Of a DNA stretch of 64,000 nucleotides, positions 46,445-47,002 are shown in pieces. Numbering within the stretch: position 1 is the stretch's first letter; the number at the start of each line of letters is the position of its first letter. The DNA is from Escherichia coli (GTDB taxonomy: Bacteria; Pseudomonadota; Gammaproteobacteria; Enterobacterales; Enterobacteriaceae): assembly GCF_044324875.1 (NCBI RefSeq), contig NZ_CP172185.1, one strand, 5' to 3'. Both the position numbers and the translations under genes were made by a program. Below the pieces are notes generated by a model. The model searched no databases and was not told the DNA's origin. It was given only the letters and a program-made list of their open reading frames with translations.

Positions 46445-46561
46445 TGTTAAAGAGAAAATATTCAGATTGCAGACCAGGTAATTATTGATGAAACTGCAGG
46501 TGAAGTTGTTATCGGAGCGAATACCCGTATTTGTCACGGTGCCGTTATTCAGGGTCCGGTA

Positions 46562-47002
46562 GTGATTGGCGCAAACTGCCTGATAGGTAATTATGCGTTT
46601 ATTCGTCCTGGCACAATAATCAGCAATGGCGTAAAAATTGGTTTTGCCACCGAAATTAAAAATGCGGTTATTGAAGCGGAAGCAATGATTGGTCCGCAAT
46701 GCTTTATCGCCGACTCGGTAGTTGCAAACCAGGCATATTTGGGCGCACAAGTACGTACCAGTAATCATCGTCTGGATCAACAGCCCGTGTCTGTTCGAAC
46801 TCCAGAGGGAATTATCGCTACCGAATGCGATAAATTAGGTTGTTATATCGGGCAGCGTTCACGCCTTGGCGTACAAGTTATTATTTTGCCTGGGCGAATT
46901 ATTTCCCCGAACACGCAACTTGGCCCGCGCGTGATTGTAGAACGTAATTTACCTACCGGAACTTATTCACTCCGACAAGAACTTATCCGTACAGGAGATT
47001 AA
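46562..47002 (+). CDS. yaiX: hexapeptide-repeat acyltransferase; canonical start codon not evident, possibly 5'-truncated or pseudogene
   Basis: Left-handed beta-helix repeats (IGANCLIGNYAFIRPGTIISNGVKIG...); same frame is open back to 46451 directly after the yaiP stop with no in-frame ATG. Confidence 0.6.
   Translation: MIGANCLIGNYAFIRPGTIISNGVKIGFATEIKNAVIEAEAMIGPQCFIADSVVANQAYLGAQVRTSNHRLDQQPVSVRTPEGIIATECDKLGCYIGQRSRLGVQVIILPGRIISPNTQLGPRVIVERNLPTGTYSLRQELIRTGD

Follow-up and report, generated by a model that had tools for sequence, protein, structure and literature searches.

The gene yaiX of Escherichia coli lies in a locus that opens with tauA, on the minus strand, and continues on the plus strand with yaiS, yaiP, yaiX, yaiO, frmR, frmA and frmB. 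We analysed this locus in a stretch of 64,000 nucleotides (nt) of E. coli DNA (NCBI RefSeq assembly GCF_044324875.1, contig NZ_CP172185.1), hereafter the window, in which the yaiX region occupies positions 46445 to 47002. An initial annotation, made from the letters alone, had noticed that the yaiX frame opens just behind yaiP with no canonical start codon, and had proposed either a rare start codon or a pseudogene deprived of its 5′ end. As written in the window, yaiX reads as a frameshifted gene, in which a single missing A disconnects the body of the protein from its beginning.

The description of the frame itself proved accurate. The stop of yaiP, TAA at 46442-46444, is followed by a second TAA at 46448-46450, directly after which, at 46451, the yaiX frame opens; it extends over 184 codons, the last being the stop TAA at 47000-47002. 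This frame reads RENIQIADQVIIDETAGEVVIGANTRICHGAVIQGPVVIGANCLIG... and contains no ATG, GTG or TTG ahead of the GTG at 46562, where the listing of open reading frames (ORFs) starts a product of 146 amino acids (aa). The residues preceding this GTG had been taken for β-helix repeats, and profile searches agree, with Pfam Hexapep covering residues 19-52 and LbH_GLGC residues 8-89 of a translation in which the GTG is residue 38. From 46451 onward, identity is 97-98% with E. coli orthologues and about 50% with further homologues. Given these matches and identities, the 37 codons ahead of the GTG do not represent a frame left open by chance.

A junction alignment locates the difference between the window and its relatives in the A-run at 46455-46458. 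There the window reads GAGAAAAT, with four A (A4), and strains 7/2, 19AR0646, ST131-4224 and K-12 read GAGAAAAAT, with five (A5). In a megablast of positions 46300-47100 against 5,426 complete E. coli genomes, every full-length match exceeded the query by one base. When the fifth A is present, the yaiX frame extends upstream past the yaiP stop and into the last part of yaiP, which it reads in a frame other than that of yaiP itself; the alignment of orthologues thereby reveals in other strains the additional 5′ coding sequence whose existence had been raised initially. Two A5 loci (L001 and L003) carry a single ORF of 236 aa leading into the β-helix body, with ATG codons at positions 1494 and 1512 of L001. 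The first of these is ACG in the window (the difference from locus L008 at 46294). With A5, a start at the ATG at 46311 gives a protein of 230 aa and an out-of-frame overlap of 134 nt with yaiP.

In the window, the 5′ frame is reduced to an ORF of 56 aa at 46311..46481, which reads MDLLPFLLDANLSATNPPAIPHWWKRQPLIPNLLSQELKNFLKLNVKEK, then the out-of-frame residues IFRLQTR, and ends at a premature TAA at 46479-46481. The frame that would lead without interruption from the ATG of MDLLPF..., through a pair of tryptophans (W-W), to the C-terminus is broken at 46455-46458. The gene appears startless because the A missing from the A5 run cuts its body off from a start inside yaiP. We hold this anatomy, in which a one-base deletion separates the body from the start at 46311, with high confidence. 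The pseudogene foreseen by the initial annotation is therefore retained as an outcome; the loss of the 5′ end is not, as the 5′ part still lies at 46311-46457 and is only disconnected by the 1-nt deletion.

The consequences for translation can be predicted from this arrangement. A ribosome starting at 46311 would read ...NVKEK-IFRLQTR and halt at 46479-46481. The β-helix body would be stranded in another frame, in which the first ATG, GTG or TTG is the internal valine codon at 46562, and a product begun there would be devoid of the N-terminal W-W cap and of the first coils of the helix. The truncated products are probably inactive, judging from what they would lack, and the likeliest outcome would be the loss of YaiX, with yaiS, yaiP and yaiO staying intact.

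The comparison with distant bacteria provided clues on the true beginning of YaiX. Homologues of 204-206 aa (about 50% identity) begin with MWW..., aligned to HWWKRQ of the long E. coli ORF. The alignment of this distant M-W-W start with the H-W-W encoded at 46374-46382 argues that the segment before the frameshift is real coding sequence. In an alignment of 68 sequences, both W23 and W24 reach a conservation of at least 90%. The hexamer TGGTGG is retained at every locus examined, even though the overlapping codons of the yaiP frame are free to wobble, an invariance that points to a constraint from the tryptophan codons. The upstream part thus appears, on this comparative evidence, to be genuine coding sequence from the W-W onward.

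Outside the enteric bacteria, the gene for the left-handed β-helix (LbH) protein starts with (A/G)TG-TGG-TGG and overlaps the stop of the family-2 glycosyltransferase (GT2) gene by exactly 14 nt, as (A/G)TGTGGTGGnGTGA. This junction was recorded at loci L023 and L027-L029 and at loci from Pseudomonas, Acinetobacter, Sphingomonas and metagenome-assembled genomes (MAGs), loci L037-L045 being also compared. In enteric loci, the codon before the W-W is CAC, TAC, CCT, CGG or CGT, none of which is a start. In Escherichia, Citrobacter, Superficieibacter and an Ignatzschineria MAG, the GT2 ORF is 19-24 codons longer, and the LbH frame remains open up to a conserved ATG (M-D/E-LLPFLL) located 21-22 residues before the W-W; the two genes overlap by 134-137 nt in the first three genera and by 149 nt in Ignatzschineria. 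Several non-enteric loci carry stop codons in the stretch upstream of the W-W. Mean pairwise identity upstream of the W-W is 0.62 in the YaiX frame and 0.85 in the YaiP frame; downstream, it is 0.54 and 0.33, respectively. These values agree with the arrangement described, the YaiX frame being the better conserved of the two only downstream of the W-W.

Our reading is that the functional N-terminus begins at the W-W, and that the only role of the enteric leader is to provide a start codon. The ATG at 46311 is the sole canonical start available, and we infer that it is the one actually used. Enteric yaiX would then be translated from an ATG located 134 nt inside yaiP, through a dual-coding stretch that arose once the ancestral MWW start and the yaiP stop were lost; this proposal is better supported than a switch in the A-tract. 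RefSeq models made by the NCBI annotation pipeline PGAP begin at CTG codons and give 193 aa (L001:1623) and 197 aa (L003:1611), equivalent to positions 46424 and 46412 of the window. These models look too short because they omit the W-W segment; the RefSeq start calls for yaiX probably truncate the protein, and the CTG models would be wrong if the ATG inside yaiP is the true start. The KEGG-derived annotation uses 236 aa (PMC13058169).

Another ATG, at 46444, overlaps the yaiP stop (TAATG) and was considered as a coupled start. It was rejected, as it is out of the yaiX frame with both A4 and A5. In the window, it opens an ORF of 14 codons at 46444-46488, MLKRKYSDCRPGNY; with A5, a hand translation of the aligned sequence gives MLKRKIFRLQTR.

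Features of the yaiS-yaiP-yaiX-yaiO cassette in the window (positions are those of the 64,000-nt stretch)
Feature	Coordinates	Strand	Description
yaiS	44567..45238	+	PIG-L deacetylase, first of the four genes; intact 223-aa ORF; Pfam PF02585, E 5e-25
yaiP	45248..46444	+	Family-2 glycosyltransferase; 398 aa, intact; PF00535, E 7e-28
yaiX 5′ segment, codons 1-49	46311..46457	+	ATG, enteric-specific leader, H-W-W at 46374-46382, ...SQELKNFLKLNVKEK
CAC (His) codon	46374..46376	+	Site of the ancestral ATG/GTG start before W-W in non-enteric homologues
yaiX body frame	46451..47002	+	Residues 48-230 of the intact protein; LbH acetyltransferase domain; no usable start
Frameshift site	46455..46458	+	Four A, five A in relatives; 11 nt past the yaiP stop
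GTG taken as ORF start	46562..46564	+	Val85 codon inside the intact protein
yaiO	47004..47777	+	Outer-membrane β-barrel, last gene; intact; PF19413 and TIGR04390, E 3e-54

The A4 allele is very rare. Of the 3,934 complete genomes matched by a 71-nt probe with the site at its centre, none reached 99% identity; the best matches, at 98.6%, correspond to the one-base gap. All 17 E. coli loci that fit the pattern of the probe, written as a regular expression, carry A5. An exact 33-nt A4 pattern was found in none of the metagenome contigs, where the equivalent A5 control pattern was found in 79. The nearest relative found, locus L007 (GCA_044690745.1), has A5 and a called gene of 193 aa; over 7,197 nt, it differs by two single-nucleotide polymorphisms (SNPs) and the A-run gap, the latter being the sole indel over these 7.2 kb. 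One SNP, at 46739, lies inside yaiX and is synonymous (TTG/CTG, Leu), and the other is at 43489, so that two of the three differences fall within the 0.55 kb of yaiX. An exact look-up of the 146-aa product that starts at the GTG of the window found no record of it, and hence no further contig with this lesion. A deletion that is private in this manner is either very recent or a base-calling error.

Several observations weigh against a real deletion downstream of a start at 46311. The A4 allele is private, being found neither in the nearest relative nor in any other data searched, and a single homopolymer read error would also give this picture. Low-level reinitiation at the GTG at 46562 may take place and leave some fragment activity, and overexpression of the 71-aa YaiX fragment of K-12 gives phenotypes (PMC13058169). 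On the side of the start, the CTG codons called by PGAP for the 193- and 197-aa models are an alternative assignment, although with these starts, too, the A-tract would fall within the coding sequence and the A4 allele would be broken, and Hongu et al. reported no Shine-Dalgarno sequence upstream of yaiX (PMC13058169). The ATG at 46311 is preceded, 6 nt before, by a weak GGA, with no stronger Shine-Dalgarno sequence seen, and the conserved YGLIAFFTG of YaiP could account for the conservation of this ATG and of MDLLPFLLD.

With these points taken into account, we consider with moderate confidence that the deletion is a real and recent mutation and not a read error. That the organism has A5 and an intact yaiX, with the missing A a sequencing or assembly error, is about half as probable. 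Single-base homopolymer indels are a typical error of long-read and of some older platforms, and no other sequence examined has A4, be it among the probe-matched genomes, the loci, the metagenome contigs or the relative that differs by two SNPs. However, a run of four to five bases is short for a systematic homopolymer error. Six indel events separate the 64-kb window from the nearest references; four are intergenic, and the only other coding one, in malZ, is a real shared allele. With so few indels and a shared malZ allele, the assembly is not noisy, although such a census shows a clean assembly and decides no single site. The repeated inactivation of the cassette in E. coli also makes a real inactivating mutation unsurprising.

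The other explanations are all very unlikely. An intact yaiX could start at the ATT suggested by the initial annotation, which is indeed found at 46460-46462 behind AAAGAGAAAAT, in frame and after a purine-rich tract. AUU initiation exists in E. coli for infC and pcnB, and PGAP already accepts non-canonical CTG starts for yaiX. In the relatives, however, the same ATT is the internal Ile51 of a frame that runs through from upstream. The upstream residues are conserved, W-W motif included, and the 27 residues from the W-W to the A-tract, conserved and confidently modelled, would be missing from an ATT-started protein. The startless arrangement is found only in the window, and for this reason the ATT cannot be an evolved start. 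Only AAAGAGAAAA stands upstream of it, AGAG being a poor match to a Shine-Dalgarno sequence, and near-cognate starts operate at about 1% or less of the efficiency of ATG. We regard this explanation as very improbable. The least probable of all is that the GTG at 46562 is the true start of a 146-aa YaiX behind a non-coding upstream frame. No canonical start precedes it in the frame, and 146-aa products have been predicted from further E. coli assemblies, such as those of cluster P0030 (476 members). Yet the exact product of the window is not on record, and the 37 upstream codons match the hexapeptide and LbH profiles. The GTG is not a conserved start preceded by unconserved residues; it is the internal V85, situated beyond W23-W24 and seven conserved residues of the helix (D60, G64, G69, C75, G77, G82 and P83). 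All full-length homologues reach well upstream of it.

It is likewise hardly probable that the A-tract recodes, by −1 ribosomal or transcriptional slippage, or that it varies in phase, with A4 off and A5 on. The break sits exactly in a homopolymer, a −1 shift after the AAA at 46455-46457 would restore the protein, and E. coli uses ATA, the zero-frame codon that follows, only rarely. Genes for surface-polysaccharide modification are often phase-variable in other bacteria. An A-tract 11 nt past the yaiP stop could then act as a low-frequency switch, through strand slippage or leaky −1 decoding, which toggles the acetylation of a YaiSPXO polysaccharide and is caught in the window in its "off" state; we give this scenario very little credit. 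The sequence GAG AAA ATA is not an X XXY YYZ heptamer, and −1 re-pairing would put tRNA-Lys on GAA. Folding of positions 46440-46570 gave a minimum free energy z-score of +0.70, with 152 of 200 shuffled sequences folding at least as well, and thus no stimulatory structure; no Rfam family was matched at the A-tract. Four A are far below the eight to nine or so needed for efficient transcriptional or strand slippage, and a phase-variable tract typically has at least 7 nt, against four here and five elsewhere among the loci examined. Nor is there any polymorphism in tract length, A5 being the state of every locus that fits the probe pattern and A4 being found in no complete genome or metagenome contig searched. 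The two-frame arrangement is not kept, all relatives being in frame with A5.

The fold of YaiX was approached with profiles and with structure prediction. The translation of 46451-46999 scored 65 bits with PF00132 (cutoff 27) and 68.8 bits with PF25084 (cutoff 54), and the repeats recognized by these profiles place YaiX in the hexapeptide-repeat left-handed β-helix superfamily. Upstream of V85, five residues of the 68-sequence alignment are invariant (D60, G64, G69, G82 and P83) and two are nearly so (C75 and G77). The AlphaFold model of an intact 230-aa orthologue has a mean predicted local distance difference test (pLDDT) score of 88, with values of 50-66 for residues 1-20 and of 80-90 for residues 21-50. 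Short, regularly spaced strands begin at residue 51, and blocks reach a pLDDT of 96-99 through most of the helix; a β-helix fold of YaiX is thus predicted by the model. Residues 241-399 of ST0452 (PDB 2ggo and 5z09) gave a profile match with E 1.8e-34, and GlmU proteins matches with E around 1e-13. The NCBIfam model Arch_glmU matched with E 5e-37, over its C-terminal part only. NCBIfam contains no YaiX equivalog and all scores were far below the equivalog cutoffs, so that no specific function can be assigned to YaiX from them. By homology to the ST0452 and GlmU domains, YaiX would be an acyl-CoA-dependent acyltransferase.

The neighbouring genes give this enzyme a context. The lesion leaves yaiP, whose exact protein is present in many E. 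coli genomes, untouched 11 nt upstream; over its final 134 nt, yaiP doubles in another frame as coding sequence for the 5′ part of yaiX. The best NCBIfam match of YaiP is PgaC_IcaA, with E 1e-28 and 100 bits for a cutoff of 422. The 19-24 aa tail of enteric YaiP is poorly conserved. Downstream, yaiO has a GGAG motif 8 nt before its ATG and encodes an exact protein that is widespread. The order of the PIG-L, GT2, LbH and YaiO genes is retained in distant bacteria. According to a meeting abstract cited in EcoGene 3.0, repair of the K-12 yaiX leads to clumping during vegetative growth, for which YaiP is also required (PMC3531124). Homology, gene order and this clumping suggest that YaiX is probably an amino-sugar acetyltransferase, which would make a surface polysaccharide together with YaiS, YaiP and YaiO. 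An anti-phage defence role for the cassette was also considered and set aside, as PADLOC returned no anti-phage defence matches for it. On the state of the other genes, yaiS is annotated as a truncated pseudogene in the otherwise close strains 7/2, 19AR0646, ECA64 and CB6837. Such yaiS pseudogenes, along with the IS2 inserted in the K-12 yaiX, suggest a repeated decay of the cassette.

The window contains other particularities of its own. On the minus strand, a 1-nt deletion in a C-run near 5571 divides malZ (4783-6599) between two ORFs, at 5424-6599 and 4783-5616; a 71-mer over this lesion is identical in five complete E. coli genomes, and PGAP describes the gene as "frameshifted" in strain ST2350. 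An IS2 copy of 1,331 bp at about 36139-37468, 98.1% identical to the IS2 of the K-12 yaiX, resides in a yaiT-like autotransporter gene between the two copies of a 5-bp TTCAG duplication; strain C4 lacks it. Identity to strain C4 is 98.8% over 1-25000 and 99.94% over 25001-36138, and over 12-25 kb no complete genome is more than about 99.0% identical. Recombination appears to have made the source a mosaic, of a lineage with poor representation among complete genomes. Past yaiO, a C-run between this gene and frmR is interrupted by a 2-nt insertion, CA at 47827-47828, that strains ECA64 and CB6837 lack. A long, near-perfect palindrome (…TATATACTATAGGGGGGTATGCATTGACATATAGAATACCCCCCTATAGTATAT…) lies just upstream of frmR at 47873-47956, where it overlaps promoter-like TTGACA/TAGTAT motifs. 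It is presumably the promoter/operator of frmR, and an Rfam search of the region gave only spurious sub-threshold microRNA matches.

What the window shows is either a commonplace frameshift in a known gene, already recognized as a pseudogene in K-12, or an error in a single base. It carries little biological weight and somewhat more for annotation, where the fitting entry would be a frameshifted yaiX pseudogene or a recheck of the base call, and neither a 146-aa protein starting at GTG nor an exotic start. If the mutation is real, it would add one more independent inactivation of the cassette to the IS2 of K-12 and the yaiS pseudogenes. Repeated inactivation fits a surface-polysaccharide or clumping system that E. 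coli lineages can lose. On another aspect, the comparison across genera locates the start of YaiX, with a conserved W-W upstream of the CTG starts of RefSeq. The position of the start bears on the cloning and repair of yaiX, including the recent overexpression work with the 71-aa and 236-aa forms, and the evidence gathered on it is a modestly useful by-product of this analysis.

The closest known counterpart is E. coli yaiX itself (b4579), which in K-12 is likewise located between yaiP and yaiO; protein identity over the body is 97-98%. The K-12 gene is inactivated by IS2 (PMC3531124); this IS2A insertion lies further downstream, whereas the lesion of the window is a 1-nt deletion at codon 49/50. 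As written, both copies are inactivated forms of an intact gene represented by the 236-aa variant, which Hongu et al. 2026 studied beside the 71-aa variant of K-12 (PMC13058169). Among proteins of solved structure, the C-terminal LbH domain of ST0452 from Sulfolobus tokodaii is the closest relative, followed by GlmU, and the hexapeptide β-helix is common to them and YaiX. Unlike these enzymes, YaiX stands alone, as a protein of about 205-230 aa that lacks a nucleotidyltransferase domain, has a W-W segment of its own and belongs to a PIG-L/GT2/LbH/YaiO cassette.

At the level of the whole cassette, a membrane GT2, a deacetylase, an outer-membrane barrel and the clumping mentioned in the abstract cited by EcoGene 3.0 (PMC3531124) recall pgaABCD, the synthase-dependent system for poly-β-1,6-GlcNAc. 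The deacetylase is however of the PIG-L type and not PgaB, the barrel is YaiO and not PgaA, and an LbH acetyltransferase is added; with 100 bits for a cutoff of 422, YaiP is not PgaC. By homology and gene order, the cassette would thus resemble a synthase-dependent exopolysaccharide system other than pgaABCD. The junction of the GT2 and LbH genes also has known parallels, as the 14-nt overlap found outside the Enterobacterales is like the coupled junctions of the ATGA/TAATG type. The junction of Escherichia, Citrobacter and Superficieibacter differs from these, in that the ancestral start and the GT2 stop are gone and the ATG is drawn from the Tyr-Gly codons of YaiP.

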